Under the pieces are notes generated by a model. The model worked only from the letters and a program-made list of their open reading frames with translations, did no database searches and was not told where the DNA came from. From Calditrichota bacterium (lineage in GTDB: Bacteria; Electryoneota; Electryoneia; Electryoneales; Electryoneaceae), in the NCBI GenBank assembly GCA_018263585.1, contig JAANWZ010000130.1:14062-78061 (forward strand): 64,000 nt of DNA. Reading direction: 5' to 3'. Below, piece by piece: positions 3,260 to 41,660 of this stretch (position 1 is the stretch's first letter; each line of letters starts with the position of its first letter). Position numbers and translations under genes: made by a program.

Positions 3260-3292
3260 CTACTGCGAAACGTACGCCGGGAGTTCAACGAT

Positions 3293-25232: not shown

Positions 25233-26425
25233 GCCGCGATCCCGGAGGATCGGCGACCGGCCCGCTGCGCGGCGCTGCGCCCGGCGAGCGTCTGGCTCTT
25301 CCACTTGAACTTGAAGAACTGGCCGCGGAACCCGGCGTAGAAGATCGCCGGAGCGTGCAGGATCTGCGTGAGCAGGAACTTTACCGGCGGGTACCGCTCC
25401 TGGAACCGGCGCATCCCGTCGCGCATGATCACCGACTCGGTGCCGATCTTCGAGAGCGCGAGCAGCACCGGCAACGACGGCGCAGCCCGTCCGACCAGCG
25501 CGAGCGGCAGCGAGAGCGCGATCATCAGGTAGTAGAGGAACGTGCCGACGACGAGGAACATCAGGAACGGCGGGTAGTAGAAGCCCTTCGAGCTCCAGCG
25601 CGCGCGCTGGTTCACCCACTGGTTGAGCGTGTCCACGGGCTGGCTGAACACGTACGCCTCCGGCCGTTCGACGAAACGCACGGCCCCGCCGCGCGCGGCG
25701 ATGTCCTGGAGCAGGAACACGTCGTCGCCGGACGTGATCCGGTCGTTGCTCGCGTACCCGCCGATCCGTTCGTACGCGCTGCGCCGGGCGGCGAGGTTCG
25801 ACCCGTGCGCGTTCGTCACATGGCCCGCCGCGATCGAGCCCGCAGCCATCACCGAATATGACAGGTGCTCGAGGCTCTCGAGCTCGCTCCACCACGGCCG
25901 TTTCGCCCCGTCCGCGCGGATGAACCGGCTCACTCCGGTCACACCCTGCACTTCCGGATCGGTGAACGGCGAGAGCAGCGCGCGCAGCCAGCGCGGGCCC
26001 ATCCAGCAGTCGGCGTCGGTGGTCACGATCACCTCGCCGGTCGCGAGCGCGATCCCCCGCGAGAGCGCGTACTTCTTCGGCGCGCGACTCTCGCTCGCCC
26101 CGTCGCGGATGCGGACAACCCGGTAGCGCACCCCCGACCGCGCCCGCCCGCGCACGAGCTCGCCGGTCCGGTCGCGGCTGCGGTCATCGACGACGATCAC
26201 CTCGAACTTGTCGCGCGGGTAATCCTGCGCCTCCAAGCCGTCGAGCAGGCGGCCGATCCGGGTTTCTTCATCACGAGCCGCGATCACGATCGAAGCGAAC
26301 GGGAGTTCGCCGTCGTCCTCGACGATCCGCGTGCGCGGGAGGCGGCGCAGGCCGACATAGACGATCACCATGAACGCGGAATAGACGAGCCACGCGCACC
26401 ACGTGATCATATAGTAGGCCGTCAT
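25229..26425 (-). CDS. Family-2 glycosyltransferase (membrane, QxxRW)
   Basis: IVIAARDEE...TDADC...QRARW. ATGA overlap with the upstream flippase-like gene. The long N-terminal ORF extension is out of frame with that gene and was rejected. Confidence 0.75.
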   Translation of the reverse strand: MTAYYMITWCAWLVYSAFMVIVYVGLRRLPRTRIVEDDGELPFASIVIAARDEETRIGRLLDGLEAQDYPRDKFEVIVVDDRSRDRTGELVRGRARSGVRYRVVRIRDGASESRAPKKYALSRGIALATGEVIVTTDADCWMGPRWLRALLSPFTDPEVQGVTGVSRFIRADGAKRPWWSELESLEHLSYSVMAAGSIAAGHVTNAHGSNLAARRSAYERIGGYASNDRITSGDDVFLLQDIAARGGAVRFVERPEAYVFSQPVDTLNQWVNQRARWSSKGFYYPPFLMFLVVGTFLYYLMIALSLPLALVGRAAPSLPVLLALSKIGTESVIMRDGMRRFQERYPPVKFLLTQILHAPAIFYAGFRGQFFKFKWKSQTLAGRSAAQRAGRRSSGIAA

Positions 26426-27507
26426 CCCGCCCTCCTCCGCATCCGGCGGGTGATCCGGCCGAACACGTTCGTCGCCTTCACCTTCTGCAACACGAAGAAC
26501 CCGGCGATCGCCGGCAGCAGGATGTTGATCGTGAAGATGAGCAGCGAGGCGGTGAACGCGGTCGTGTCCGCGATCTCGAACCGGTGGTAGATGGAAACCG
26601 TCGCCCACTCGCTCACGCCGAGGTCGCCGAGCGATATCGGGAGCAGCGTTTTCACGAACAGCGACGCGGTGTACGTGTGCGCCGCGGTGAGCCAGTTCAC
26701 AGCCTGAAATGCGTTGCTCAGCAGGTGGAACTGGGTGAGGACAACGACGAACTGGCCGGCGGTGATCGCGGCCATCCGCCGGCTGTCGCGGGGCTCGACC
26801 CGGTCGAGCGCGTGCAGCAGGTCGGCGGCACTCCCTTTCAGCGGCAGCCGCTTCTGCAGCCACGCGAGCAGTCGCCGGAGCGGTACGGGAGTGAGCGCGT
26901 ACGAGAAGTAGAGAACCGGGAGCGCGCTCGTCGCGATGAGCAGCGAAACCCGCAGGCCGGGGGAGAGGTAGTCGCTGAACCCGGGCGTGTGATACACGAG
27001 CGCCGGGCCGAAAAAGACGAGCACGCCCATGAAATACGCCTTGTCGAGCACGTGCAGCCCGGCGAGCCGCACGCGCGACGGCGGCTGGAGCAGGAACACG
27101 CGCCCGATCTCGCCGACCCGGCCCGGAGTGATCAGGCCGAGCGACATCCCGCCGAGGAAGCTCGCGAACACCTTGGAAAACGGGACGCCGGGCATTTCGC
27201 CCCGGAGCGCGCACCACCAGCGCCGCCCCTGCAGCCACAGGTTGACCGGCATGAGCGCGAACGCCGCGAGCATGAACCAGCCGTTCGCGCCCGCGACCGC
27301 TTCTTCGAGCGCCGCGATCCGGATCGTGCGCACGAGCAGCCACAGCAGCGTGACCGCCACCGCCGCCTTGATGAGGTGTACGAGCCACACCTTCCACGGC
27401 CGCGGGCGGACTGTTCCGCTGTCCACGCGCGGGATCTCACCGGCCGCGGCTGCGGCGCGCGATTCGGCGGGCGCCGCGCTCTCGATTCGCTGGCCGTCAG
27501 GATTCAT
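26422..27507 (-). CDS. Flippase-like polytopic membrane protein (LPG_synthase_TM / UPF0104 family)
   Basis: 361 aa, ~8 TM helices. Resembles the N-terminal domain of MprF/HpnL-type proteins. Its stop overlaps the next GT start. Confidence 0.6.
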   Translation of the reverse strand: MNPDGQRIESAAPAESRAAAAAGEIPRVDSGTVRPRPWKVWLVHLIKAAVAVTLLWLLVRTIRIAALEEAVAGANGWFMLAAFALMPVNLWLQGRRWWCALRGEMPGVPFSKVFASFLGGMSLGLITPGRVGEIGRVFLLQPPSRVRLAGLHVLDKAYFMGVLVFFGPALVYHTPGFSDYLSPGLRVSLLIATSALPVLYFSYALTPVPLRRLLAWLQKRLPLKGSAADLLHALDRVEPRDSRRMAAITAGQFVVVLTQFHLLSNAFQAVNWLTAAHTYTASLFVKTLLPISLGDLGVSEWATVSIYHRFEIADTTAFTASLLIFTINILLPAIAGFFVLQKVKATNVFGRITRRMRRRAG

Positions 27508-28651
27508 CCGCCGCCGGTTCCGGTTCGATCGTTTGCGCGCGCCGTATCGTGCGCCCCTTCCAGCTCAGCTTCCCGAACAGCGCCTTCGGCCAGATGATCC
27601 ACCCCCAGAACGGGGCGAGCGACATCGTCACGAGCGCCTGCAGCGCGCGCTTCGGGTCGCGCAGCACACGCAGCCCGGCGGCCGCGAGCATGACGTCGCA
27701 GCCGGTCTTGAACAACCACGCGCCCCGCACCGCTGAAGCCGGCAGCAGCCGCACCACAGAAAGCAGCGTCGCGAGTCCGAGCCCGAGATAGAGCGCGCTC
27801 CCGATCAGCCCGATCAACACCCAGCCGGGCGCGTAGCGCGGGCCGACGCTCATGTGCCGAGCCTTGATCCCGACGGGGTCGTCGTGTTCGCGGAGCATTG
27901 CATGCACGACCGACTCCTTCGACGCCGCGAACTCGACCTTCCAGTCCGTGCGCGCGGCGACCCGTTGCAGGAACAGGTCGTCGTCGCCGGAGGCGTACCG
28001 GCCGTCCGAGCCGAACCCGCCCATGTCGAGATAGAGCCTGCGCCGAGCGGCGAAGTTTCGGCCGAACGCGTTGAACGGAAACCCGAGCCCGACTGCGGCC
28101 GCGCTCAACGTCGCGGACGAATACGACTCCCCCTCCGCGAGCCACTGGAGCGGGTTGTTCGGGCCGGTGAGCGGAGCGTAGCCGAGCACGATCCCGGCGC
28201 GGTCGCTCATGTACGCCGCGAGCGCGCGGATCCACTGCGGGCCGGGCACGCAGTCCGCATCGGTGAACACGACCCATTCCCCGCTGCAGCGACGGATCGC
28301 GGTGTAGAGCGCGCGTTTCTTCGGTGACTTGATCGGCAGCGTCGGGTTCGCGGAGATCACATGAAAGCGCCGGTCCCTGCGCGCCGCGTCGAGCGCGAGC
28401 GAAAGCGTGTTGTCCTCGGAGTGGTCGTCCACGATCCAGAAATCGATCTTCTCGCGCGGGTAATTCTGTGCGGAGAGCGCGGCCATCAGCCCGGGCAGGT
28501 AGGTCTCCTCGTTGCGGGCGGCGACGATCACCGAGACCTTCGGCAGCGACGGATCATCGGCCGGCAACGGGTCGCGCCTGTTCACGCGCAGCAGGCCGAG
28601 CGTCGCGAGCCCGGTGAGCGCGCCGTACACGGCTTTGTATCCGTTCAGCAA
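27497..28651 (-). CDS. Family-2 glycosyltransferase (membrane)
   Basis: VSVIVAARNEE...TDADC motifs. Start placed at TTG 28651, which has a GGGAG RBS 8 nt upstream. A longer ORF reaching 28855 would run through the 26-bp palindrome. Confidence 0.65.
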   Translation of the reverse strand: MLNGYKAVYGALTGLATLGLLRVNRRDPLPADDPSLPKVSVIVAARNEETYLPGLMAALSAQNYPREKIDFWIVDDHSEDNTLSLALDAARRDRRFHVISANPTLPIKSPKKRALYTAIRRCSGEWVVFTDADCVPGPQWIRALAAYMSDRAGIVLGYAPLTGPNNPLQWLAEGESYSSATLSAAAVGLGFPFNAFGRNFAARRRLYLDMGGFGSDGRYASGDDDLFLQRVAARTDWKVEFAASKESVVHAMLREHDDPVGIKARHMSVGPRYAPGWVLIGLIGSALYLGLGLATLLSVVRLLPASAVRGAWLFKTGCDVMLAAAGLRVLRDPKRALQALVTMSLAPFWGWIIWPKALFGKLSWKGRTIRRAQTIEPEPAADES

Positions 28652-28976
28652 CGTGCGTTCTCCCTGATTCGGGGACAGTCCGGGCGTCCGTGACCGCTCC
28701 GCCGGAGTCCCCCCGCGGTCGATCCAACATCGCAATATAGGGCGTGGCCCGGAGCGAAAACAGGTTTCCCCGTTCGCTCCCGCGGGCGCGCTGGTCCCTT
28801 TGCGCGCCGGGGCCTCCGGGGACGCTTGCTTGCAAGCGTCCCCTGCCTCTGCCACGTCTCCTTTGCGCGAGCGGGACCGGCGAATGTATGCTCTACACCG
28901 TTGTTCGTGAACGCTGCCCGTGGGAACGCCCGCTCCGGCGTTCCGTCTCTTTCACCGCAACCACCGGCGAGCGACG
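28652..28976. promoter_or_regulatory. Divergent promoter region between the GT-deacetylase-flippase operon (-) and the ABC exporter pair (+), containing the 26-bp palindrome
   Basis: 325-bp spacer between divergent start codons. Perfect palindrome at 28818-28843. Confidence 0.4.
28818..28843. repeat. 26-bp perfect palindrome GGGGACGCTTGC-TT-GCAAGCGTCCCC
   Basis: Seen directly. Lies in the divergent GT-operon / ABC-exporter intergenic region. Confidence 0.85.
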
Positions 28977-30725
28977 ATGGCCGAATTCATCCGCAGAGTG
29001 CTCTACTACTACCGCCCGTACCGGGGGGCGGTGATCGCCGGACTCGTGTTCGTCGTACTCGCGAACGTGTTCAAGTCATTGAGCCCGTGGGTGCTGCGGC
29101 TCGCTGTCAACAGCATCGAGAGCGGGCTCGAGCGCGCCGAGCTCTGGCACTGGGCCGGGCTGATCGTCGGCGTCGCCGCACTCGCCGGCCTGTTCACGCT
29201 GCTGATGCGGAAGAAGGTGATCAGCGTAAGCCGGCACATCGAATATGACATCCGCCAGCGGCTGCTGAGGCACCTGCTCGCGCTCGACCCGTCATTCTAC
29301 GACCGCTCGCGGATCGGCGACCTGATGACCCGGTCCACGCTCGACATCGAGCAGGTGCGGATGGTGATCGGCCCCGCGCTGATGTACACCGTGAACACGA
29401 TCTTCGGTTTCCTGTTCGCGATGGTGCTGATGTTCACGATCTCCGTGCCGCTCACGCTGATCGTGATCCTGATCGGACCGATCGTCGCCGGGCTCGTGTT
29501 CCTCGTCGGGCGCAGGGTGCATCGCGCGTCCACCGAGAGCCAGGAGGCGTTCTCCGACCTGAGCGCGTTCGTGCAGGAGAACGTGAGCGGGATCCGGGTC
29601 GTGAAGGCGTTTCTCCAGCACGAGCACCAGCAGCGAGAGTTCGCCGGCCGGAGCGGCACACTGCTGAAGAAGAAGATGAAGCTCGTGCTGTTCCAGGGCA
29701 CGTTCATGCCGCTGATCATGCTCCTGTTCGGGACCGCGGTGTCGGCGATCATGCTCGTCGGCGGTTACTACATCATCGAGGGCACACTCCGCGTCGGCGA
29801 CTACGTCGCGTTCACCGGCTACCTGATGATGCTCACGTGGCCGATGGTGTCGATCGGCTGGGTTGTCAGCCTCGCGCAGCGGGGGCGGGCGTCGCTCGAA
29901 CGCATCAACGACCTGCTCGACCGCGGGCCGGGGCTGCCGGACCCGGACCCGCCCTCCGACCCGCCGCCGCGCGGGAACGGAACCGTGCGCTTCGACAGCG
30001 TCACATTCACCTACCCGCAGGCGACCGCGCCCGCGCTGAACAGCGTCAGCTTCGAGCTCAAGCCGGGCGCGACGCTCGGCATCGTCGGCCGCGTCGGCTC
30101 CGGCAAGAGCACGATCGCCTCGCTGATCACGCGCATGTACGACGTCAGCAACGGCCGGCTCCGGTTCGACGGCGTCGATGTGCGCGCCTGGAGCCTCGCC
30201 GGGCTGCGCGGGCGGATCGCGGTTGTGCCGCAGGATCCGCTCCTGTTCAGCACGTCGATTCGCGACAACATCAGGCTCGGAGGAGAGTTCAGCGAGGATG
30301 AAGTCGCGCGCGCGGTCGAGATCAGCCGGCTCGTGCAGGACATCGACAGTTTCCCGGACGGCCTCGACACGGAAGTCGGCGAGCGCGGAATCACGCTCTC
30401 CGGCGGCCAGAAGCAGCGGGTTGCGATCGCGCGCGCGGTGATCCGAGACAGCGAGCTGATCCTGTTCGACGACGCGCTCAGCGCGGTCGATGCGAGCACC
30501 GAGGAGAAGATCCTCGACAACCTGAATCGCCACCTGGAAGACCGGACCGCGATCATCATCACCCACCGCACGACGAGCGTGCACGAGGCCGACGAGATCC
30601 TGGTGATCGACGACGGCGCGATCGTCGAGTGCGGCCGTCACGGCGAGCTGATCAAGCGCGGGGGCGTGTACGCCGACCTGTTCCGCCGGCAGAAGATGGC
30701 GCGCGAGCTCGAGGAGGCGGCATGA
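28977..30725 (+). CDS. ABC exporter, fused permease/ATPase (MsbA-like), subunit 1
   Basis: 6-TM domain plus Walker A GRVGSGKST, LSGGQKQR signature, and Walker B ILFDDALSAVD. Confidence 0.85.
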   Translation: MAEFIRRVLYYYRPYRGAVIAGLVFVVLANVFKSLSPWVLRLAVNSIESGLERAELWHWAGLIVGVAALAGLFTLLMRKKVISVSRHIEYDIRQRLLRHLLALDPSFYDRSRIGDLMTRSTLDIEQVRMVIGPALMYTVNTIFGFLFAMVLMFTISVPLTLIVILIGPIVAGLVFLVGRRVHRASTESQEAFSDLSAFVQENVSGIRVVKAFLQHEHQQREFAGRSGTLLKKKMKLVLFQGTFMPLIMLLFGTAVSAIMLVGGYYIIEGTLRVGDYVAFTGYLMMLTWPMVSIGWVVSLAQRGRASLERINDLLDRGPGLPDPDPPSDPPPRGNGTVRFDSVTFTYPQATAPALNSVSFELKPGATLGIVGRVGSGKSTIASLITRMYDVSNGRLRFDGVDVRAWSLAGLRGRIAVVPQDPLLFSTSIRDNIRLGGEFSEDEVARAVEISRLVQDIDSFPDGLDTEVGERGITLSGGQKQRVAIARAVIRDSELILFDDALSAVDASTEEKILDNLNRHLEDRTAIIITHRTTSVHEADEILVIDDGAIVECGRHGELIKRGGVYADLFRRQKMARELEEAA

Positions 30726-32506
30726 GCGAGCGCACGCGCAAGTCGATCCACGAAGAGGAGAGCCTCGGTGTCGTGTTCGAACCGCGGCTCGTGAAGCGTC
30801 TGCTCTCCTACCTGCGACCGTACCGCGGCAAGGTCGTGATCGCGGTGGTCCTGCTGCTCGCGGTCGCCGGGCTCGAGCAACTCGGACCGTACCTGACGAA
30901 AGTCGCGCTCGACGACTACATCAAGCCCGGCGATTTCCAGGGCCTGATCGGGGTCGTGCTGCTCTACCTCGGGCTGTACGTGCTGCTCTCGCTGGTGCGC
31001 GTCGGTCAGGCGGTGCTCACCGGCTGGGTCGGCGAACACGTGATGTACGACATCCGCCGCGAAGTGTTCGCCCACTTCCAGCGCCACACGCTCAGCTTCT
31101 TCGACCGCAACCCCGTTGGCAGGCTGGTCACGCGCAACACGAACGACGTGCAGACGCTGAGCGAGATCTTCTCCTCCGGAATCGTCGTCGTGTTCGGCGA
31201 CCTGTTCATGCTGATCGGGATCATCGTCGCGATGGTGCTGCTCAACTGGAAACTGGCGCTGGTCGCGATCGCGGTCGTGCCGCTCGTCGTGTTCGCGACG
31301 TTCTTCTTCCGCGGCCGCCTGCGCGACGCGTTCCGTTCGGTCCGCATTGAAACGGCCGGCGTCAATTCGTTCCTCCAGGAGCACCTTTCCGGCGTTCGAA
31401 TCGTGCAGCTGTTCAACCACGAATCGCACACCGACCGGGCGTTTTCACATGTCAACGGCCGTCTCCGCGGCGCCCACCTGCGCACGGTCAGCCTGTTCAG
31501 CGTGTTCTTCCCCGTGCTCGAGCTGCTGAGCGCGTCCGCGGTCGCGCTCATCATCTTCCGCGGCGGCGGGCTCAGCGTCGACGGCGCGATCACGATCGGG
31601 ACGCTCGTCGCGTTCCTCCAGTACGCCGAGCGCTTCTTCCGCCCGATTCGCGACCTCGCCGAGAAGTGGAACATCTTCCAGGCGGGGATGGCGTCCGCGG
31701 AGCGCGTGTTCAAGGTGCTCGACACGAAGCCGGAGATCAGCGACCCCGTTCGCCCGAAGCAGCCCGGCGAACGCAGGGGGAAGATCGAGTTCGATCATGT
31801 CCGGTTCGGCTACGGCGACGAGGAGGACGTGCTCAAGGACGTGCATTTCACGATCGAGCCGGGCGAGACCGCGGCGATCGTCGGCGTCACCGGCGCGGGC
31901 AAGACGACGATGATCAACCTGATCGGCCGTTTCTATGACGTGCGCTCCGGGGCGATCCGGATCGACGGCGTTGATGTCCGCGAACTCAGGCGCGAAGATC
32001 TGCTCCGCGAGCTCGCGTACGTGAGCCAGGACATCTTCCTGTTCAGCGGCACGATCCGCGACAACATCGCGCTCGGGGACGAGTTCACGGACGAGCAGAT
32101 CCGGCGTGCGGCGAAGATGGTGCACGCCGACACGTTCATCGAGCGCCTGCCGCGCGGATACGATGAGGAAGTCACGGAACGCGGCGGCACGCTCTCGACC
32201 GGCCAGCGCCAGCTCCTCTCGTTCGCCCGCGCGATGGTCCGCGACCCGAAGCTGCTCGTGCTCGACGAGGCGACCAGCTCCGTTGACCCGGAAACGGAGG
32301 CGCACATTCAGGACGCGACCGCCGTGCTGATGCGCGGGCGAACATCGATCATCGTCGCCCACCGGCTGAGCACCGTGCAGCGCGCGAACCGGATCCTCGT
32401 GATGCACAAGGGGAAGCTGTGCGAGATGGGTACACACCGCGAGCTGCTGCGCAAGCGCGGCATCTACTGGCGGCTGTTCGAGCTCCAGTACCGGCGCGTC
32501 GCCTGA
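30722..32506 (+). CDS. ABC exporter, fused permease/ATPase, subunit 2 (heterodimer partner)
   Basis: ATGA overlap with subunit 1. GVTGAGKTT, LSTGQRQL, LVLDEATSSVD. Confidence 0.85.
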   Translation: MSERTRKSIHEEESLGVVFEPRLVKRLLSYLRPYRGKVVIAVVLLLAVAGLEQLGPYLTKVALDDYIKPGDFQGLIGVVLLYLGLYVLLSLVRVGQAVLTGWVGEHVMYDIRREVFAHFQRHTLSFFDRNPVGRLVTRNTNDVQTLSEIFSSGIVVVFGDLFMLIGIIVAMVLLNWKLALVAIAVVPLVVFATFFFRGRLRDAFRSVRIETAGVNSFLQEHLSGVRIVQLFNHESHTDRAFSHVNGRLRGAHLRTVSLFSVFFPVLELLSASAVALIIFRGGGLSVDGAITIGTLVAFLQYAERFFRPIRDLAEKWNIFQAGMASAERVFKVLDTKPEISDPVRPKQPGERRGKIEFDHVRFGYGDEEDVLKDVHFTIEPGETAAIVGVTGAGKTTMINLIGRFYDVRSGAIRIDGVDVRELRREDLLRELAYVSQDIFLFSGTIRDNIALGDEFTDEQIRRAAKMVHADTFIERLPRGYDEEVTERGGTLSTGQRQLLSFARAMVRDPKLLVLDEATSSVDPETEAHIQDATAVLMRGRTSIIVAHRLSTVQRANRILVMHKGKLCEMGTHRELLRKRGIYWRLFELQYRRVA

Positions 32507-32653
32507 CCCGGCTCGCACGCTCCGCCTGCGAAACCGAGCCGCACCTCTCGCCCGTTGCCCGCCCGCCCGATCCGCCCTCATCTTCCTCCGGTCGATTGAG
32601 GTGGGGAGGACGGACCGCAGCCGGGAACCGGTCGCCGCAACAGCGGAGGAATC

Positions 32654-33673
32654 GTGGCGCGAGGCAAACTCACTCCCGCGGATTTCAGGAAACGTGCGCG
32701 CGCGGGCTCGCTCGCACCCGTGTACGCCGCGATCGGCGGGGAACTGCTGCTGCACGACGCCGTTGAACACGCCGCGCGCGCGATCCCGGACGAGCCCACG
32801 CGCGACTTCAACCTTGACATCCTTCACGGAGACGGGCTCGATGCGCGCGAGCTCGCGCCGGCGCTGTCCGCGCTGCCGGTGATGGCCGAGCGCAGGGTCG
32901 TACTCGTGAAACACGCGGAAGCGATCACACCGACCGTGCAGAAGTACGTCTCCGAGTACGCGAACGATCCGGTCGAGAGCACGCTGCTCGTGCTCCTGAT
33001 CGGCACGGACGGGAAGCAGGCGTGGGTGAAGAAGCTCGCGTCGGCCGTGGACGTGATCGACTGCGGCACTCCGCGGCGGCCGGCGCTCGCAAAATGGGCG
33101 CGGCGCACGGCGGAACAGCTCGGCGTCGGCATCGACGAGGACGCACTCGCGCTGCTGACCGACACCGGCGGGCGCTTGATCGACCTGTACGGCGAACTGC
33201 TGAAGGCGTCGCTGCTGATCGACGAGGGGGAGACGATCACGCTCGAGGTGCTGCAACGCGTCTGGGGCATCCGTGAGGAAGTGAACGTGTGGTCGTTTTT
33301 CGATCACGTCGCCGCCGGTGACAGGCTCACCGCGTTGAAGGAGCTGGAGGTGCTCCAGGACAATATCGACAAGGACTCGGGTTTTTTCTTCTCGCAGATC
33401 GCGCGGCGCTGGCGTCTCGCGGCGAAGGAGCGGGGCTACGATCGGCGCAGAGTGCCCCCTTCCGAGCGCAGATGGAGCGGGAACACGAAGCGGCAGTGGC
33501 AAATGGCGTCGGCGGCTGTGCGCGCCTTACCTTTCTCGTTTACCGACCGGCAGCTCGAGCGCCTGCTCGTCCATGACCGAACGAGGAAGACGCGCACGCT
33601 CGACCCGATGATCGGCTTCGCCAATCTGATCCACCGTATCTCGCTCGATCGGAAGGATGTCAATAATGGCTGA
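32654..33673 (+). CDS. holA: DNA polymerase III delta subunit-like
   Basis: 339 aa. N-terminal region resembles HolA clamp-loader delta (PVYAAIGGELLLHDAVEH...). GTG start after GGAGGA. Confidence 0.5.
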   Translation: MARGKLTPADFRKRARAGSLAPVYAAIGGELLLHDAVEHAARAIPDEPTRDFNLDILHGDGLDARELAPALSALPVMAERRVVLVKHAEAITPTVQKYVSEYANDPVESTLLVLLIGTDGKQAWVKKLASAVDVIDCGTPRRPALAKWARRTAEQLGVGIDEDALALLTDTGGRLIDLYGELLKASLLIDEGETITLEVLQRVWGIREEVNVWSFFDHVAAGDRLTALKELEVLQDNIDKDSGFFFSQIARRWRLAAKERGYDRRRVPPSERRWSGNTKRQWQMASAAVRALPFSFTDRQLERLLVHDRTRKTRTLDPMIGFANLIHRISLDRKDVNNG

Positions 33674-34277
33674 GCGGCCACGTCCGAATCATGAGCAACC
33701 ATACAGGGATCTCACCGACGAAGAGCTGATGGCGCTCGTCCAGCAGGACGACGAGATCGCGTTCGAGCTCCTCGTCGAGCGCTATCAGCATCCGTTGATG
33801 ACTTTCATCTCCCGCTTTCTCGGAGCGGGCAGCCACACGCAGGACGTGTTGCAGGAGACGTATATCCGCGTGTGGCGGCACCGGCATCACTACAAGACGG
33901 TCGCCAGGTTCTCGACCTGGGTCTATACGATCGCGGGCAACCTCTCGAAGACTGAGCTGCGCCGGCAGAAGATCCGGCGCATGGTCCCGATCCGCACCGG
34001 CGGGGAGTCACCGGAGGACGAGTCGGTCGATGTCGAGGATCCGGGGCCGGCGACGGACGAGCGCGCGCGGCGAAACGAGATCCGCCGCCGGGTGAACCAG
34101 GAGATGCAGCGGCTGCCGGACGCGTATCGCGCCGCCGTGATCCTGAGAGACTTGCAGAACAAGAGCTACGAGGAGATTGCGGAGATTCTCAATGTGCCGA
34201 TCGGCACGATCAAGTCGCGTGTAAACCGCGGGCGCGCCCGGCTGCAGAAGCGGCTCAAGGCCCTCCGGGAGCCGTAA
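33666..34277 (+). CDS. ECF-type RNA polymerase sigma-70 factor
   Basis: Region 2 (YIRVWRHRHHY...STWVYTIAGN) and region 4 HTH (SYEEIAEILNVPIGTIKSRVNRGRARL). Confidence 0.85.
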   Translation: MAERPRPNHEQPYRDLTDEELMALVQQDDEIAFELLVERYQHPLMTFISRFLGAGSHTQDVLQETYIRVWRHRHHYKTVARFSTWVYTIAGNLSKTELRRQKIRRMVPIRTGGESPEDESVDVEDPGPATDERARRNEIRRRVNQEMQRLPDAYRAAVILRDLQNKSYEEIAEILNVPIGTIKSRVNRGRARLQKRLKALREP

Positions 34278-34651
34278 TCGGCCGCCGGGGAACCTTGACG
34301 GCCGGGGCGAGTACCAGCATCGAAACACGCGTTCGTCCGACTCATGCACGGTGTCGCGTCCGGTTCCGGGGAGGTGTTCGCGGAGCTGTCCGGGAACGCC
34401 TGCGCGACTTGCGTGTGCAACCGTTCGACGATGGCAGTGGAGGACCGCGCCGGTCCCGGTGTGCGCGGCGCGGGAGCTGCTTGACAGTGCGATTGCTTCC
34501 TCACGGTGTCGTACATGGTCCGGGGGATGAGCCGCGTTCGTACCGGCTCACGGATCCATCAATACAGGTCTGCTTGTTCAGGGAGATGGAGGTGACGAAG
34601 CCCGTGGAGGCAAGCTGTATGTCCGCGGGCGAGTGAGAACCGTTGACATGA

Positions 34652-35197
34652 GTGTGGACGATGAATCTTGAGACGTTTGAGGAGCTCTGGCCGGAGCGCG
34701 ACCGGATGGACGACGAAACGCGTGCGCTGCTTGAACAGATGTACGCGAGCGATCGTCACTGCCGCGCCTACGCCGACGGCGGTGATTGGGTGAGAGTTCT
34801 CCTGCAGGCTGATGATCCCGAGCTCGCCCCCGCCGATTTGTCCTACCGAATGCGCCTGTTCGCGCAGAACAACCCCGACACAGACGAACCCGGTTCACGA
34901 TCCTGGCTGCGCTGGCCGGTTGTCACGGTCGGAGCTGCGGCCGGAGTCGCCGCGATGTTTGTCGCGTTCGGCCCGATGCTGAACGAGGAACACGCGTCGA
35001 CTGCGCCCGCGAGCGCCGGCCACTCGGGGGAAGAGGACGCTCGGATGGCGCCGGTTCCATTGGTTCTCGGTGCGGACGAGACAAGAGAGCTGGCGAAGTC
35101 GTCGGACAGCACGCGCGCGGACAGCGTGAAAACCCCTGCGCGGGACGTCGATCAGCCCGACTGGGACATGCGCGCCGTGAGCGCGGGCAACCAGTAA
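34652..35197 (+). CDS. Putative anti-sigma factor (single TM)
   Basis: N-terminal cytoplasmic segment with HC motif. One TM helix (WPVVTVGAAAGVAAMFVAF). Low-complexity periplasmic tail. Lies downstream of the ECF sigma after a 380-nt spacer. Confidence 0.35.
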   Translation: MWTMNLETFEELWPERDRMDDETRALLEQMYASDRHCRAYADGGDWVRVLLQADDPELAPADLSYRMRLFAQNNPDTDEPGSRSWLRWPVVTVGAAAGVAAMFVAFGPMLNEEHASTAPASAGHSGEEDARMAPVPLVLGADETRELAKSSDSTRADSVKTPARDVDQPDWDMRAVSAGNQ

Positions 35198-35355
35198 TCG
35201 CCCGTACGCGGGACCGGCTCGTGTTCAGACGCCGCCCCGGTGCGGCAGGGTGGCCCGGGGCTCCCCGCGGGTTTCATGCACGCATGGATAAGCCGCGCGG
35301 GCAAGGTGCGCACCGCACCCGGGCCGCACGGGCGACACTGATGTGATTGGCGGAG

Positions 35356-35381
35356 GGGGACGCTTGCTGGCAAGCGTCCCC
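35356..35381. repeat. 26-bp perfect palindrome GGGGACGCTTGC-TG-GCAAGCGTCCCC
   Basis: Seen directly. In the non-coding region downstream of the putative anti-sigma gene. Confidence 0.85.
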
Positions 35382-35527
35382 GGTGTCGGGGCCTGGTGGC
35401 CCGCGAGCTTGCCGCGGGACAGGAGTCTGAGCTACATTCCACACCTGCAGATCCACCCGTCCCCGGGTGGATCGCTTATCTTGAACGGTTCGCAATTACA
35501 GGGCCGGTTGCGCATTCGGCGCAGGGT

Positions 35528-35680
35528 GTCATCCTGAACAAGCGCGGCGTCCGTTTGCCGCGCGCTGTGAAGGATCTACGCGGTGCACCACCAGGATGTC
35601 ATTTGACACGCACCCGCGCGGTTCTTGCTGGCAGATCCTTCACCCCCGCACAATAGAGACGTGCGGGGGTTCAGGATGAC
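35528..35680. repeat. MITE/REP-like element, variant copy E
   Basis: GTCATCCTGAACAAGC...GTTCAGGATGAC termini. Divergent interior carrying the GAAGGATC / GATCCTTC pair. Confidence 0.7.
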
Positions 35681-35780
35681 ACTGAGGCGGCGCTAAAACG
35701 GACCGGTGGCTGGGGTCCAAGATGACTCGACCTTGCATTTGCGCGGAAGCCTATTCAAAGAGAAACGCAGGAGTTTTCAG

Positions 35781-35978
35781 ATGGCCAAGGGGAAATCGTT
35801 CGCCGCGAAGCTGGCGAAGGGAAAGGGCGCGTCGAAGCGGGTGAACGCCGCCGGCGAAGAGATAACCACCGTGCGCGTGCTCAAGCCCACCGAGGTCCCG
35901 GGCAAGCCCGGCGTGTATCGTTATCGTGAAGTGATGGTGGACGTGGTCCCGTCGAAGGAAAAGGAGATCTTTGGCTGA
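35781..35978 (+). CDS. Small basic protein (DUF4295-like?)
   Basis: AGGAG RBS. 65 aa, Lys-rich N-terminus and PGKPGVYRYREVMV core resemble DUF4295 small proteins. Confidence 0.4.
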   Translation: MAKGKSFAAKLAKGKGASKRVNAAGEEITTVRVLKPTEVPGKPGVYRYREVMVDVVPSKEKEIFG

Positions 35979-37161
35979 TCGCGACCGCCGTGCGTTCCTG
36001 ATCGTGCTCGACGGCGTCGGGATCGGCGCGGCGCCGGACGCCGGCGAGTACGGTGATGCCGGCGCGAACACGCTCGCGCATGTCGCCGGTATGTCCGGCG
36101 GGGTGGAGCTGCCCGTGCTCGCGCGACTCGGGCTCGGAAACATCGCCTCGCTCACAGGCGTCCGGCCGGCGCGGAATCCGCAGGCGTCCCACGGGCTGAT
36201 GCGCGAACTCGGCGCCGGCAAGGACTCGATCACCGGCCACTGGGAACTGTGCGGCGTGATCAACGACACGCCGTTTCCCACGTACCCGGACGGGTTCCCC
36301 GGCGACGTCGTCGCTCTCGTCGAGCGGATCAGCGGCCGGGACGTGATCGGCAACGAGGCGGCCTCGGGCACGGAGATCATGCAGCGCCTGGGCGCGGAGC
36401 ATCTGCGCACGGGCGCTTTGATTATCTACACTTCCGCCGATTCCGTGCTCCAGATTCTCGCGCACGAACGTGTAGTCCCGCTTGCCGAGCTGTACCGGAT
36501 CTGCGAGCGCATCCGCAGGCAACTCCCCCGCGAGCACCGGGTCGGGCGCGTGATCGCGCGGCCGTTCGCCGGTGAACAGGGCGGGTTCGAACGCACCGCG
36601 AACCGCCGCGACTTCGCCGTCGAGCCGCCCGATCAGACGCTGCTCGACCAGTTGATGAGAGAGCGGGTGCGCGTGCACGGGATCGGCAAAGTGGACACGC
36701 TGTTCGCGGGAAGAGGCTTCACGAGCCGCACGCGCACGAAGAGTAACACGGACGGGATCATTGCCACGCTCGAGCGAATCCGATCGACGGTGCCCGGTCT
36801 CGTGTTCACGAACCTGCTCGATTTCGACACGCGCTGGGGCCACCGGAATGACGTCGCCGGCTTCGCGAAGGGCCTCGAGGATTTCGACAAGGGGCTCAAG
36901 TACTGGGTCGAAGCCCTGCGCCCGGGCGATTTGATGATTCTCACCGCGGATCACGGCAACGACCCGACCTTCCCGGGCACCGACCACACGCGCGAGCTCG
37001 TTCCGCTGCTCGCATGGCATGGCGGTGGGATCCGCGGCCGTGACCTCGGCCTGCGCCACGGGTTCGCCGATGTCGCCGCGACTGTAGCCGCGCATTTCGG
37101 GCTCGAATGGAACGGTCCGGGCGAGTCGTTCCTCTCCGATGTGCCGTATCCGTGGGGTTGA
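35971..37161 (+). CDS. deoB: Phosphopentomutase
   Basis: LIVLDGVGIG and TADHGND alkaline-phosphatase-superfamily motifs typical of DeoB. TTG start after AAGGAG. Confidence 0.85.
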   Translation: MADRDRRAFLIVLDGVGIGAAPDAGEYGDAGANTLAHVAGMSGGVELPVLARLGLGNIASLTGVRPARNPQASHGLMRELGAGKDSITGHWELCGVINDTPFPTYPDGFPGDVVALVERISGRDVIGNEAASGTEIMQRLGAEHLRTGALIIYTSADSVLQILAHERVVPLAELYRICERIRRQLPREHRVGRVIARPFAGEQGGFERTANRRDFAVEPPDQTLLDQLMRERVRVHGIGKVDTLFAGRGFTSRTRTKSNTDGIIATLERIRSTVPGLVFTNLLDFDTRWGHRNDVAGFAKGLEDFDKGLKYWVEALRPGDLMILTADHGNDPTFPGTDHTRELVPLLAWHGGGIRGRDLGLRHGFADVAATVAAHFGLEWNGPGESFLSDVPYPWG

Positions 37162-37176
37162 GCAGAGCGGCTGCCG

Positions 37177-37767
37177 ATGACGAAGTTGTACGTATCAACG
37201 AAGAACCCGGACAAACTCCGCGAGCTGGGTGAACTGCTCGGCGCGGATGTCGAGCTGCTCCATCCGGACCCGGGCGACCCGGAGATCGAGGAGACGGGCG
37301 CGACGTTGTCGGAAAACGCGCGCCTGAAGGCGGAAGCGGGCCACCGTCGCAGCGGGCTGATCAGCCTCGCCGACGATACGGGCCTGGAGGTCGATGCGCT
37401 CTCCGGCGCGCCGGGCGTGTACTCCGCCCGCTACGCCGGCCCGGGCGCGAGCTACCGGGACAACCTTCAGCGGCTGCTGCGCGAGCTGCACGGCACGGAT
37501 CCGGCTCACCGCACGGCCCGGTTTCGCTGCGTGATCTGTTGCGCGGGCGTCGATAATGAGCCTCGTCGCTTCGACGGCGTGCTCGCAGGCCGGATCATCG
37601 ACACGCCCCGCGGCGACCGCGGATTCGGCTACGACCCGGTGTTCGTCCCGGACGGCGAGGAACGCACGCTCGCCGAGCTGAGTGCAGATGAGAAGAACCG
37701 GATCAGCCACCGCGGGCGCGCGCTCCGGGCGTTTCTCGCCTGGTGGAGAGAGAGGGTGGCTGTTTGA
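37177..37767 (+). CDS. rdgB: Non-canonical purine NTP pyrophosphatase (RdgB/HAM1)
   Basis: 196 aa with TKNPDKLRE, FRCVI, and GFGYDPVF motifs. Confidence 0.88.
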   Translation: MTKLYVSTKNPDKLRELGELLGADVELLHPDPGDPEIEETGATLSENARLKAEAGHRRSGLISLADDTGLEVDALSGAPGVYSARYAGPGASYRDNLQRLLRELHGTDPAHRTARFRCVICCAGVDNEPRRFDGVLAGRIIDTPRGDRGFGYDPVFVPDGEERTLAELSADEKNRISHRGRALRAFLAWWRERVAV

Positions 37768-37822
37768 TTTGACGGCGCGGGTTCCGTTCATGACCGGACC
37801 GCGCGAGCTGGATGAGGCGACG

Positions 37823-39034
37823 ATGCCGGTGAAGGAGAAGAAGCGGCCCGCCGTGGACGCGGGAGCGCGAGTCGGCGGGCCGGTCTATCTCGACCACAGC
37901 GCGACCACGCCCGTGGACCCCGAGGTGGCGGATCTCGTGCACCGAGTGATGCTCGAGGGCTGGGGCAACCCGAGCAGCAAGTACAAGCCCGGCAACGCGG
38001 CGAAGATCGTGCTCGAACGCAGCCGCGAACGTGTCGCAAACCTGCTCGGCGCGCCGAAGGAGGACGTGTTCTTCACCTCCGGCGGCACGGAATCGGACAA
38101 CCTCGCGATCTTCGGGGTGATGGAGGCGGCTCGTGACGCCGGCCGCGGCGACCACTTCATCACCGACGCGATCGAGCACAGCGCCGTGCTGCACACCGTG
38201 GACGCGCTCCGCGAGGACGGTTTCCGTGTCACCGTGCTCCCGGTGACGGCGGGCGGGTTCGTCGAGCCGGATGCGCTGCGCGACGCGATCGACGACCGCA
38301 CCGTGCTCGCGAGCGTGATGCACGTGAACAACGAGATCGGCACGATCGAGCCGATCCGCGAGCTGGCCGCGGTCGCGCATGAACGCGGCGTTCTTTTCCA
38401 CACCGACGCTGTGCAGTCGTTCGGCAAAGAGGCGTTGGATGTGCGCGAGTCGGAGGTTGATCTCGTGTCGGTGAGCAGCCACAAGATCTACGGGCCGAAG
38501 GGTGTCGGCGCGCTCTACATCCGGCACGGCGTCGAGATCCGCCCGCGCCAGTTCGGCGGCGGGCAGGAGCGCGGAATCCGCACCGGCACGGAGAACATGC
38601 CCGGGATCGCCGGCTTCGGCGCGGCCGCGGAGTTGTGCGGTGAACGGATGGACGCCGACCGCGAGCGCATCGGCGCGCTCTGTGACCGCTTCCTCGGCTG
38701 GATCCGCGACGAGTGCGGCGGCGATGTGCTCGTCAACGGCAGCCGCGAGAACCGGATCTACCTCAACCTCAACCTCCGCTTCCCGGACGTGGAAGGCGAA
38801 TCGCTGTTGCTCGCGCTCGACCTCGACGGAATCGCGGTGTCCACCGGGTCCGCGTGCAGCTCCGGTTCGACGGAGCCGTCACACGTGCTGCTCGCACTCG
38901 GGCTCAGCGAACAGGAGGCGCACTCTTCGATTCGGCTCACGCTCGGCCGCGGCAACGACGAGGTCGGTCTCCGTTACGCCGCGGAGTGTATCGGCCGCCA
39001 CGTCCGCCGCTTGCGTGAGATGGCGGCGTGGTGA
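37823..39034 (+). CDS. Cysteine desulfurase (IscS/NifS family)
   Basis: YLDHSATTP. SSHKIYGPKGVGALY (PLP lysine). SGSACSSGS active-site Cys loop. GAGG RBS. Confidence 0.88.
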   Translation: MPVKEKKRPAVDAGARVGGPVYLDHSATTPVDPEVADLVHRVMLEGWGNPSSKYKPGNAAKIVLERSRERVANLLGAPKEDVFFTSGGTESDNLAIFGVMEAARDAGRGDHFITDAIEHSAVLHTVDALREDGFRVTVLPVTAGGFVEPDALRDAIDDRTVLASVMHVNNEIGTIEPIRELAAVAHERGVLFHTDAVQSFGKEALDVRESEVDLVSVSSHKIYGPKGVGALYIRHGVEIRPRQFGGGQERGIRTGTENMPGIAGFGAAAELCGERMDADRERIGALCDRFLGWIRDECGGDVLVNGSRENRIYLNLNLRFPDVEGESLLLALDLDGIAVSTGSACSSGSTEPSHVLLALGLSEQEAHSSIRLTLGRGNDEVGLRYAAECIGRHVRRLREMAAW

Positions 39035-39171
39035 GATGGTTTCCCCGGGCGGCGTCCCGGTGCTGTGTCGTCGCGCCGGGCGAGGACGACTCACTTCCCT
39101 CGTGCGTGCACTTGCGAGCATTCGGTTATCCCTTTGGCTCAGCCGGGAGCAATATCGCGGGTGGCAAGGGT

Positions 39172-39363
39172 GTCATTCTGACCGAAGCCCGACGTCTTTT
39201 TGTCGGGCGAAGGGAAGAAGGTGCAGGTCTGACACGGGTGGAGGATACCATGAAACTCGTGAAATAACCCTTGGATAAGCTGGACCTTCTTTATCCGCGT
39301 TCACGCAAACAGACGCGTGAGGAGGGGACGCTTGCTGGCAAGCGTCCCCACAGCCAGAATGAC
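39172..39363. repeat. MITE/REP-like element, copy F (inverse orientation of D; carries a nested 26-bp palindrome)
   Basis: About 85% identical to the reverse complement of D. GGGGACGCTTGCTGGCAAGCGTCCCC is inserted near one end. Confidence 0.8.
39324..39349. repeat. 26-bp perfect palindrome GGGGACGCTTGC-TG-GCAAGCGTCCCC (nested in element F)
   Basis: Seen directly. Confidence 0.85.
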
Positions 39364-39473
39364 GCCTCTGCCACCCGGGTGTGCTTCAGAGTCCGGTCCA
39401 TGCACGTGGCTGAGCGAACGGTATAACCCGTTGCCGGCAGGCGTCCCTTTTTCGAGGAAGACTCAATCCACCG

Positions 39474-40637
39474 ATGGCGATAAAGACGACAGAAAAGCGG
39501 GTCGGCGTGCTGATGAGCGGCGGGGTGGACAGCTCCGTCGCGGCGGCGCTGCTGAAGCGGAAGGGATATCACGTTGTCGGCGTCACGCTCCAGCTCTGGG
39601 ATTATGAAACCAACGGACGGCGTCCCCCGGGCGAGCGCGGCTGCTGCGACATCTCGCACCAGATGGACGCCCGCTTCGTCTGCCACCATCTCGGCGTCGA
39701 ACACGTCGTCCTCGACCTGCGTGACGCCTTCCGCCGCGCGGTGGTCGGGCCCTACGAAAACGCCTACCTTTCCGGGAGAACGCCGAATCCGTGCATCGCC
39801 TGTAACACGCACATCAAGTGGGCGGAGGTGATCAGGCGCGCGCCGGTGTTCGGGCTCGATTTCATCGCGACCGGCCACTACGCGCGCGTGGTTCGCGGCC
39901 GGGACGGCGTCCGGCTCGAGAAGGGCGTCGATCGCGCGAAGGACCAGAGCTACGCGCTGTGGCAGATCCCGCGGCACGTGCTCGCGCGCACGATCTTCCC
40001 GCTCGGCACGTGGACGAAGCGTTCGATACGGGAAGAGGCGCGTCAGCTCGGCCTGCGCACGGCCGACAAGCCCGAGAGCCAGGAGGTCTGCTTCATCGAC
40101 GGCCGCTACGACGAGCACCTGCGCGAGGAGTACGCGGACCGGGTTTCGCGGATCGGCGCGGGCGAGATCGTGGACACCGCGGGGCGCACGCTCGGCGGGC
40201 ACAGCGGCTTTTTCTCGTTTACGATCGGCCAGCGGAAAGGGCTCGACATTTCCGACGGCCGGGGCCCGTATTACGTGACCGAGCTCGACGCGGCGCGTAA
40301 CCGGGTCGTCGTCGGCGACCGCCGTTCGCTCGCGCGCACAGGCCTCGTCGCGGTCGAGCCGAACTGGGTGTCGTTCGACCCGCCGGAGCGGCCGGAGCGG
40401 TGCGCGGTGAAGGTGCGCTACAATGACCCGGCCGGCGCGCCCGCGACCGTGCATCCGCCTGAAGATGGACGCGTGCTGATTCGGTTCGACAACCCGGTCG
40501 ATGCGGTCACCCCCGGCCAGTCCGCGGTCTGGTATCGCGGAAACGCCGTCTGGGGCGGCGGAATCATCAGCCGCGCGTTGAAGGACGGTGACGCGGCGGC
40601 AGACAGTCACAGGATGAACCTCGAGGCAGACTGGTGA
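39474..40637 (+). CDS. mnmA: tRNA-specific 2-thiouridylase
   Basis: PP-loop SGGVDSSVAA. Catalytic Cys motifs. Full-length MnmA. Confidence 0.88.
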   Translation: MAIKTTEKRVGVLMSGGVDSSVAAALLKRKGYHVVGVTLQLWDYETNGRRPPGERGCCDISHQMDARFVCHHLGVEHVVLDLRDAFRRAVVGPYENAYLSGRTPNPCIACNTHIKWAEVIRRAPVFGLDFIATGHYARVVRGRDGVRLEKGVDRAKDQSYALWQIPRHVLARTIFPLGTWTKRSIREEARQLGLRTADKPESQEVCFIDGRYDEHLREEYADRVSRIGAGEIVDTAGRTLGGHSGFFSFTIGQRKGLDISDGRGPYYVTELDAARNRVVVGDRRSLARTGLVAVEPNWVSFDPPERPERCAVKVRYNDPAGAPATVHPPEDGRVLIRFDNPVDAVTPGQSAVWYRGNAVWGGGIISRALKDGDAAADSHRMNLEADW

Positions 40638-40788
40638 AAAAGGCGTGATCGTCCGTCATGCTGAACGAAGTGAAGCAGGTCCAGGTTCGCAAAGGGTCGG
40701 TCTCATAAGCCAACCTGTTGATAACTCGGATCTTTCCTTCACTGCGTTCAGGACATGCTTCCGCCGCCTGCGGCGGCGTCAGAATGAC
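40638..40788. repeat. MITE/REP-like element, copy G
   Basis: GGCGTGATC..GTCATGCTGAACGAAGTGAAGCAGGTCCAGGTT...GGATCTTTCCTTCACTGCGTTCAGGACATG...GTCAGAATGAC. Confidence 0.85.
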
Positions 40789-40856
40789 ATGCCACCGGCG
40801 GTCGGCGGTTCATCAAGCTGGAAATACTTCATCAACAGTCTCGATGGGGAGCGCTG

Positions 40857-41660
40857 ATGGCGCGCAACAAGATCACGGCACCGCGGATCGTCGAGATGAA
40901 GCGGGAGGGAGTCCCGATCGCCGCGCTCACCGCGTATGACGCAACGTTCGCCGCGGTGCAGGACAAGGCCGGGCTCGACATCATCCTCGTCGGCGACTCC
41001 GCCGGCATGGTCGTCGCCGGCGACCCGGACACGCTGTCGATCACACTCGACGAGATGATCTTCCTCTGCCGCAACGCGAGCCGCGGGGTGAAACACGCGC
41101 TGCTGGTCGGGGACATGCCGTTCGGGTCCGCGCAGCTCTCCACTGAAGCGACAATCTCCGCCGCGGTCCGGTTCATGAAGGAGGGGCGCGCGGAGGCGGT
41201 GAAGGTCGAAGGCGCCGGCCCGGCGCTCGCGGCGATCAGGCGGATGACCGCGATGGGAATCCCGATCATGGGCCATCTCGGGCTCACGCCGCAGTCGGTG
41301 AACTCGTTCGGCGGCTACGGCCTGCGTGGCGCGACCGACATCGAAGCGCAGCGGATCCGCGACGACGCGCTCGCGCTCCAGGACGCGGGCGTGTTCTCGA
41401 TCGTGCTCGAGAAGATCCCGATCGAACTCGCGCGCGTGGTCACTGAGGACCTGGACGTTCCGACAATCGGGATCGGTGCGGGCCCGCACTGCGACGGGCA
41501 GATCCTCGTCAGCTACGACATGTTCGGGCTCGGCCCGAAGTTCCGGTTCGTGCGCCGCTACCTGGAGGGGGACCGGCTGATCGACGGCGCTGTCCGCAAG
41601 TACATCGAGGATGTGCGCAACCGCGACTTTCCCAGCGAAGACGAGAGTTTCGCCGGATGA
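40857..41660 (+). CDS. panB: 3-methyl-2-oxobutanoate hydroxymethyltransferase
   Basis: LTAYD...VGDSAGMV...GHLGLTPQS motifs. Confidence 0.9.
   Translation: MARNKITAPRIVEMKREGVPIAALTAYDATFAAVQDKAGLDIILVGDSAGMVVAGDPDTLSITLDEMIFLCRNASRGVKHALLVGDMPFGSAQLSTEATISAAVRFMKEGRAEAVKVEGAGPALAAIRRMTAMGIPIMGHLGLTPQSVNSFGGYGLRGATDIEAQRIRDDALALQDAGVFSIVLEKIPIELARVVTEDLDVPTIGIGAGPHCDGQILVSYDMFGLGPKFRFVRRYLEGDRLIDGAVRKYIEDVRNRDFPSEDESFAG

Follow-up and report, generated by a model that had tools for sequence, protein, structure and literature searches.

The palindrome and its genomic setting

The DNA considered here, a 64-kb stretch of contig JAANWZ010000130.1 that we refer to throughout as the window, belongs to the metagenome-assembled genome (MAG) of an uncultured Calditrichaeota/Calditrichota bacterium; it has a GC content of ~65% and encodes the proteins MBS1262406 to MBS1262463 (locus tags MAG453_017xx-018xx). 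The genes are exclusively of the housekeeping kind: the nuo operon, glycosyltransferases, an ATP-binding cassette (ABC) exporter pair, holA, an extracytoplasmic function (ECF) sigma factor and a conserved 65-aa protein, together with genes for a metalloenzyme, Ham1, a cysteine-desulfurase-like (IscS-like) enzyme, MnmA, PanBC, ArgRS, TamB, BamA and LpxC-FabZ. A Pfam scan of 39 open reading frames in the window found no transposase domain, Y1_Tnp included; the 64 kb hold no gene for a classical or helix-turn-helix (HTH)-type regulator apart from that of the ECF sigma factor, and neither Rfam families (at gathering thresholds) nor tRNAs were found in them. Three of the intergenic spacers contain the same 26-bp perfect palindrome, GGGGACGCTTGC-NN-GCAAGCGTCCCC, which is our subject. 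The copies, one of them lying in a miniature inverted-repeat transposable element (MITE), and the genes that flank copy 1, including that of a family 2 glycosyltransferase (GT2), are:

28818-28843: palindrome copy 1, centre TT, in the spacer that separates the GT2 gene from the divergent ABC-exporter gene
35356-35381: palindrome copy 2, centre TG, in the spacer of the ECF-sigma locus
39324-39349: palindrome copy 3, centre TG, in a MITE's right arm, with the hairpin native to that arm on one side and the terminal CAGAATGAC on the other
27497-28651, minus strand: GT2 gene, start confirmed by exact look-up
28977-30725, plus strand: ABC exporter gene, ATG at 28977 placed by alignment

Searching the window with the pattern GGGGACGCTTGCNNGCAAGCGTCCCC, and allowing up to three mismatches, returns exactly three matches, all with 0 mismatches: the 12+12-nt arms are perfectly complementary in every copy, and the arms are identical among the three. 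An earlier interpretation made from the letters alone (the sequence-only reading) had reported the palindrome at precisely these coordinates, had placed the copies in the divergent promoter region, at the sigma locus and nested in a MITE, and had judged the repetition to be far beyond chance; the pattern search bears out the triple occurrence, the placements are correct, and no match arises in 100 dinucleotide-preserving shuffles. Decayed half-sites are not above chance (five non-palindrome matches at two mismatches, against a total expectation of ~13), and the spatial clustering of the copies is not significant (p ~0.07, an analytic estimate). With nearest-neighbour spacings of 6.5 kb and 4.0 kb, all three are singlets. 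When the three loci are aligned plainly, in either orientation, conservation is confined to the 26 bp, with no similarity in the flanks. A foldback longer than 26 bp was also considered and rejected: the flanks are not complementary (3/11 at site 1, direct reading), and folds add weak outer pairs only.

Copy 1 lies 133 nt from the next start codon. The other two are downstream of co-oriented genes: copy 2 is 158 nt past the stop at 35197, 146 nt before a MITE at 35528-35680 and 399 nt before the gene for the 65-aa protein (35781-35978), and copy 3 follows the stop at 39034 by 289 nt and precedes mnmA (39474) by 124 nt. As RNA, either strand of the palindrome is predicted to form an 11-bp stem capped by a tetraloop, the hairpin by itself having a free energy of ~-22 kcal/mol (z -2.5 to -5.5); the corresponding DNA fold has -12.9 kcal/mol. 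At none of the three sites does a T/U-run come after the hairpin, whichever strand is read, and a consensus terminator scan does not report the palindrome. That scan does flag 35450-35473, where GCTTATCTTG comes after a perfectly paired hairpin of 10 bp, GATCCACCCG-TCCC-CGGGTGGATC; this is the sole terminator-like site in the spacer of copy 2, and a better terminator candidate for the sigma-locus transcript than the palindrome.

The population from which the MAG derives is represented, at 99.7-100% identity, in at least 11 sequencing runs (SRR10589498, SRR10589499, SRR10589502-SRR10589508, SRR11308165; Logan loci L001-L003, L117-L136). Two of the Logan assemblies, L122 (window 26316-35201) and L123 (window 28801-35064), are independent read assemblies of this population from other sequencing runs; they match the window at 99.8-99.9% identity, cover copy 1, which is identical in both, and end before copies 2 and 3. 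An assembly artefact in the MAG can thus be excluded for copy 1. Short-read contigs of the population break repeatedly at MITEs and near the palindromes (28801, 35322, 39392), such that both kinds of element coincide with breaks in its assemblies. The exact palindrome pattern has no match in 185,579 species-representative genomes, in JGI metagenome contigs or in IMG/VR, and it is not present in the 7.4 kb past the window end (Logan contig L130). A relaxed scan of metagenomes with the 18-nt core yielded 31 unrelated single-copy hairpins, several of them ordinary T-tailed terminators, none of which belongs to the palindrome family. A scan of genome contigs by means of the cysteine-desulfurase-like protein was dominated by a universally conserved peptide, and gave relatives of mixed phyla with at most 54% identity.

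The window contains a second family of perfect palindromes, of 21 bp and with the form CCCGG(G/C)TTCG-N-CGAA(C/G)CCGGG, at 1684-1704, 3187-3207 and 3239-3259 in the nuo operon, for which 0.3 matches are expected by chance. The first two start immediately behind the TAG stop codons that end two nuo genes, and the symmetry of the third stays perfect through a compensatory G>C / C>G change. The segments 3187-3238 and 3239-3285 resemble a tandem duplication of the hairpin plus a spacer that contains a ribosome-binding site (ACTGCGAAACGTACGCYGGGAG). The Logan contigs L134-L136 start and stop exactly at these 21-bp hairpins.

The spacers around the three copies

The nearest relatives that could be retrieved are ~70% identical in MnmA, among them L084 (NCBI GCA_020444425.1) and L085 (a JGI metagenome contig). 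These two are perfectly syntenic with the window over 27.5-50 kb (GT2 | ABC, ABC, holA, ECF sigma ... MnmA, PanB, the bar marking the divergent spacer), and the palindrome is found in neither, even with up to three mismatches. Moreover, each copy sits in DNA that the orthologous spacers of both relatives lack. The spacer of copy 2, from the gene that ends at 35197 to the gene for the 65-aa protein, measures 583 bp, as against 140 and 185 bp in the relatives, and the spacer of copy 3, between the cysteine-desulfurase-like gene and mnmA, measures 440 bp, as against 35 bp in L084 and a 4-bp gene overlap in L085. The GC content of L084 (58.8%) and L085 (49.7%) differs strongly from that of the corresponding part of the window (66.3%, for the comparison over 27497-50900), which, in fully syntenic relatives, points to rapid compositional divergence within the clade.

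Two further observations concern these orthologous regions. The mnmA-panB spacer is likewise expanded, to 219 bp; the relatives' two spacers (cysteine-desulfurase-like-mnmA and mnmA-panB) are 0-35 bp or overlapping. MITEs fill both of the expanded operon spacers, and genes that are translationally coupled in the relatives have been pulled apart by repeat invasion. The segments compared were 39034-39474 and 40637-40857 in the window, 9965-10001 and 11128 in L084, and 10001-10004 and 11167 in L085. The second observation relates to the lysine-rich 65-aa protein (MAKGKSFAAKLAKGK...), which has no Pfam match and whose gene lies directly upstream of the metalloenzyme gene and overlaps it; the protein is kept in all three genomes (window 35781-35978, L084 6779-6976, L085 6790-6990). 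A conserved non-coding block (TACCTTCGGGGTCTTGRAG...) precedes this gene in L084 and L085; the upstream region in the window is dissimilar.

At site 1, the additional DNA can be delimited:

28807-28869, plus strand: 63-bp extra unit, consisting of a 53-bp insert (28807-28859) and the second copy of the 10-mer CCTTTGCGCG
28797-28806 and 28860-28869, plus strand: 10-bp direct repeat CCTTTGCGCG
28862-28892, plus strand: conserved promoter-like element of the ABC operon, TTTGCGCG ... TATGCT, orthologous to L084 and L085

The GT2-ABC spacer is 325 bp long; less the 63-bp unit it would be 262 bp, compared with 263 bp in L084, and the conserved blocks are collinear. The blocks retained are CAATATAG, ACAGGYTT and the promoter-like TTTGCG(C/A)G...GCGAAYGTATGCT, and CAATATAG and TTTGCG.G are 121 nt apart in the window, versus 58 nt in L084 and 72 nt in L085. 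The palindrome lies near the centre of the 53-bp insert, with the direct repeats 11 and 16 nt from its ends. The repeat is suggestive of a target duplication or a microhomology-mediated insertion, but it is not proof of either, because a flanking exact 10-mer repeat of this kind is seen at 0.57% of random window positions. The promoter-like element of the ABC operon is intact just downstream of the insert, copy 1 ending 18 nt upstream of the TTTGCGCG box, and the site is upstream of both divergent promoter-like elements, such that it need not be transcribed. The elements themselves, CAATATAG on one side (window 28733-28740) and TTTGCG(C/A)G-N-GCGAAYGTATGCT on the other (window 28862-28892), recur at ~134-232 in L084 and ~125-236 in L085, and could be promoters of the -33/-7 style of the FCB (Fibrobacteres-Chlorobi-Bacteroidetes) group; the TTTGCGCG box is duplicated by the insert. 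We rejected a tandem promoter duplication as the origin of the unit, since only the 10-mer is common and the next 11 nt match at 5/11 positions, and the resemblance that the L085 promoter (CAAGCGT) bears to the palindrome arm was judged coincidental.

Copy 3 is nested in one of nine MITEs in the window, each of which is made up of two inverted modules, GTCATYCTGA-hairpin-GAAGRAGGTCC ... GGACCTTCTTC-hairpin-TCAGRATGAC:

39113-39443, plus strand: composite repeat of ~330 bp that hosts copy 3; its inner MITE (39172-39363) is bounded by GTCATTCTGA ... CCAGAATGAC
15379-15690, minus strand: paralogue of that composite repeat, which lacks the palindrome and serves as the empty-site reference (identity 89% over 208 bp and 76% over 89 bp)
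9168-9309, 9376-9529, 11096-11248, 15459-15625, 35528-35680, 39172-39363, 40655-40788, 43944-44143 and 62106-62239: MITE copies in the window
3897-3987 of L084: MITE copy in the relative

The MITEs are 134-200 bp in size; their termini are conserved, as is sequence outside them (GGACCGGATCACATGRAAC...), and the hairpin stems vary by copy. The single member of the family in L084 occupies a different spacer, and the family is therefore older than both the palindrome and this lineage. Where site 3 has 34 nt (5 nt, the palindrome and 3 nt), the paralogue has 9 nt (AAGCCGGCT, plus strand), a net difference of +25, and the MITE arm's own hairpin (TCACGC...GCGTGA) is present in both. Among the 18 MITE arms in the window, only that at 39282-39363 carries the palindrome; the other 17, and with them the closest paralogue, are without it. 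It follows that the palindrome is not the core of the MITE, present in every copy, which the sequence-only reading had named as the outcome that would undo its proposal of an independent element. Full independence from the MITE is nonetheless not fully established, because a short motif at site 3, CCTCYGCCA, is also MITE sub-terminal sequence. The host MITE is 11-24% diverged from its paralogue, compared with 0% among the palindrome arms, and the palindrome copies are therefore either younger than the MITE copies or constrained.

This motif was found by an orientation-aware comparison, which extends the likeness among the sites past the 26 bp: CCTCYGCCA lies 0-15 nt from each copy of the palindrome, and three of its four occurrences in the window (both strands) adjoin palindrome copies:

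28845-28855, plus strand: GCCTCTGCCAC, 1 nt after copy 1
35348-35356, minus strand: CCTCCGCCA (TGGCGGAGG on the plus strand, where TGGCGGAGG runs into GGGACGC...), abutting copy 2 with a 1-nt overlap
39364-39374, plus strand: GCCTCTGCCAC, 14 nt after copy 3; its CCTCTGCCA core begins 15 nt after the copy

At site 3 the motif is the sub-terminal flank of the MITE, just outside CAGAATGAC, where other MITE copies have a related GGTGRC.... On resampling, 0.12-0.18% of random site triples show an equal pattern (an 11-mer at two sites plus a 9-mer, with at most one mismatch, at the third). This tie between the palindrome and the MITE family can be read in three ways: as a common recognition or target motif, as descent of sites 1 and 2 from a palindrome-bearing MITE, or as a coincidence of the order of 10^-3. 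At sites 1 and 2, broader similarity of the flanks to the MITE is marginal (z 2.0-2.4), and blastn with a word size of 7 detects no MITE similarity around either.

Origin of the palindrome copies

The reading that we favour, and hold to be rather probable, is that the palindrome forms the core of a short, lineage-specific dispersed repeat of a REP-like (repetitive extragenic palindromic) or miniature non-autonomous class. The REP-like character is partly supported, by analogy, since the copies are identical, occupy lineage-specific extra DNA in otherwise conserved spacers, include one inside another repeat and are accompanied by an adjacent asymmetric motif, and since the genome has a second palindrome family. 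The copies would have arisen by recent insertion, as a short unit able to form a hairpin was copied, probably by an enzyme acting in trans that recognizes the hairpin and the adjacent asymmetric motif; or else MITE-derived fragments may have carried the unit along. The mechanism of mobilization may have been insertion by a transposase, hitch-hiking on fragments of MITEs or templated patch insertion. Any effect on the host would presumably be incidental, the stable RNA or DNA hairpin acting as a barrier to 3' exonucleases, or as a protein or cruciform site. A further proposal, which we regard as improbable, is that the palindrome and its foot motif TGGCRGAGG constitute the cis-element of an undescribed hairpin-directed mobilization system in Calditrichota, distinct from that of the REP-associated tyrosine transposases (RAYTs) and their GTAG motif; such a system would insert copies of the perfect 26-bp hairpin between genes, in some cases producing a 10-bp duplication, with a preference for sites in or next to MITE sub-terminal sequence.

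A number of points weigh against a mobile repeat. There are only three copies within the 71 kb examined, all inside 10.5 kb, and the window encodes no transposase of any kind. Nor are the junctions uniform: at site 1 a 10-bp direct repeat stands off from the palindrome, site 3 shows an indel of the replacement type, and at site 2 no junction can be defined. For site 3, it is parsimony that gives the polarity, insertion as opposed to deletion. That the arms are perfectly identical could also reflect selection on a function. Additionally, the relatives are distant (~70% amino acid identity; GC 50-59% versus 66%), and the absence of the palindrome there consequently does not date the insertions precisely.

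Another account makes the palindrome the hairpin module of one MITE subfamily, with site 3 as the intact carrier and sites 1 and 2 as fragments or decayed copies from which the 13-15 nt that separate the palindrome from the MITE flank motif, the terminal CAGAATGAC among them, have been lost. The MITE modules of this genome do carry interchangeable hairpins, the sub-terminal GCCTCTGCCAC of site 3 recurs 1 nt from copy 1 while CCTCCGCCA abuts copy 2, a MITE lies only 146 nt from site 2, and the flank of that site aligns weakly, although collinearly, with the MITE outer arm over ~80 nt (z ~2). These flank similarities are marginal, however, with z values of 2.0-2.4 and no counterpart in the blastn search around sites 1 and 2; the insert at site 1 is just 53 bp and has no MITE termini, and the palindrome is missing from 17 of the 18 arms and from the closest paralogue. 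Moreover, arms that are 100% identical next to putative MITE flanks of ~65-70% identity at site 2 would call for extra selection or gene conversion. On balance, we consider this account to be unlikely.

Functional explanations fare worse. The sequence-only reading had offered a dimeric transcription-factor operator and a factor-independent terminator as alternatives to a mini-REP or RAYT-type hairpin, and both are disfavoured. An operator for a dimeric DNA-binding protein (a transcription factor or a nucleoid-associated protein) recruited to three promoters would suit the perfect dyad with its 12-bp half-sites, the position of copy 1, whose end is separated by 18 nt from the downstream -35-like box of the ABC operon, and that of copy 3, 124 nt upstream of mnmA; arm identity could then mean purifying selection. 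Against this, two relatives with full synteny lack the palindrome in their orthologous spacers, one copy is within a MITE, and the flanking genes are unrelated in function (ABC exporter and GT2; 65-aa protein and metalloenzyme; mnmA). Neither is there a fixed position relative to the start codons (133, 399 and 124 nt), the copy at 399 nt even having a MITE between it and the gene. Natural operators, furthermore, are seldom perfect and identical over 24 nt, and the 64-kb window has no HTH-type regulator save the ECF sigma factor. We judge an operator to be very unlikely, and are, if anything, slightly more sceptical of a factor-independent terminator, or of a 3'-end-stabilizing RNA hairpin selected for that role. 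The RNA hairpin predicted for the palindrome is very stable (11 bp plus tetraloop; ~-22 kcal/mol, z -2.5 to -5.5), sites 2 and 3 are downstream of co-oriented genes, and unrelated metagenomic hairpins share the same 18-nt core and continue into T-runs. The window's copies have no U-tract on either strand at any site, however; site 1 lies between divergent promoters, upstream of both, and need not be transcribed; the scan flags 35450-35473 rather than the palindrome in the spacer of site 2; and the cysteine-desulfurase-like gene and mnmA are adjacent or overlapping in the relatives, such that no terminator is needed between them.

Comparison with known repeat and hairpin systems

Stable GC-rich hairpins downstream of genes, as at sites 2 and 3, are also a property of intrinsic (Rho-independent) terminators and of intercistronic stem-loops that stabilize mRNA; the palindrome differs from these in that it is without a U-tract, recurs at unrelated loci and has one copy in a divergent promoter spacer that need not be transcribed. 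With bacterial MITEs (Correia/NEMIS, ERIC and the GTCATYCTGA...TCAGRATGAC family found here and in L084), it shares a non-coding, intergenic and hairpin-forming character, insertion relative to orthologous loci, a possible target-site duplication at one site and the 9-11-nt motif that is common to the sub-terminal region of the local MITEs. It is, however, much smaller, at 26 bp (53 bp at most) versus 130-330 bp for the MITEs here; sites 1 and 2 have no MITE termini, and the palindrome is present in a single one of the 18 MITE arms. Furthermore, the direct repeats at site 1 are not adjacent to the palindrome ends (11 and 16 nt off), and no direct repeats flanking the palindrome were found at sites 2 or 3.

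The combination of a hairpin and an adjacent short guide- or target-like motif recalls the palindrome-associated ends of IS200/IS605 elements and their PATE (palindrome-associated transposable element) derivatives, and insertion beside a specific short sequence is conceivable, as GAGG lies 0-2 nt from each copy. PATEs, on the other hand, have two different sub-terminal imperfect hairpins and internal sequence, whereas the perfect and symmetric hairpin of the palindrome provides no distinction between left and right ends, and the window has no TnpA or TnpB gene.

A further likeness is to REP elements and to their inverted doublets (REPINs). REP/RAYT systems comprise tens to hundreds of copies per genome and a single-copy RAYT gene, which is usually flanked by REPs. 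The elements are mobilized by RAYT (TnpAREP) Y1 HUH transposases in Enterobacteria, Pseudomonas and Stenotrophomonas (PMC3479197, PMC3116915); RAYT binding and cleavage need a conserved 5' GTAG (GTRG) at the foot of the hairpin, binding by the E. coli TnpAREP needs a mismatch or bulge in the stem (PMC3479197), and REPs mostly occur as inverted doublets ~60-110 bp apart (PMC3116915). The palindrome resembles them in being short (26 bp; REPs ~20-40 nt), GC-rich and extragenic, often between co-transcribed genes, and in having a short asymmetric motif by the hairpin foot; further parallels are the several families per genome, the restriction to a lineage and the insertion within other repeats. 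Its foot, by contrast, is TGGCRGAGG/GAGG-like and not GTAG: the 4 nt on either side of copies 1, 2 and 3 are CTCC/TGCC, GAGG/GGTG and AGGA/ACAG, respectively. The stem is perfect, unlike the mismatched substrate of E. coli TnpAREP (PMC3479197), the copies are singlets and not inverted doublets, and copy 1 has a 10-bp direct repeat, whereas single-strand transposition by HUH enzymes makes none. No RAYT gene is seen in the window. Given the lack of a GTAG foot, the perfect stem, the singlets and the window's want of a RAYT gene, the palindrome is not a member of the REP/RAYT group in the strict sense. Thus, where the sequence-only reading had suggested a "mini-REP or RAYT-type" hairpin, the mini-REP half is the best supported of its three options, by analogy only, and the RAYT-type half fails on these same grounds.

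The palindrome is, as it stands, an ordinary observation of repeat biology, made on three copies, and the kind of bacterial repeat to which it belongs is well known. Together with the accompanying MITEs, it has widened operon spacers, that between the cysteine-desulfurase-like gene and mnmA from at most 35 bp to 440 bp. Should copies across the genome confirm it, a little-studied phylum (Calditrichota, of the FCB group) would gain a REP-like family and, if the reading is true, one without the hallmarks of RAYT mobilization (GTAG foot, imperfect stem and doublets), which would bear on how such palindromes spread outside the Proteobacteria.

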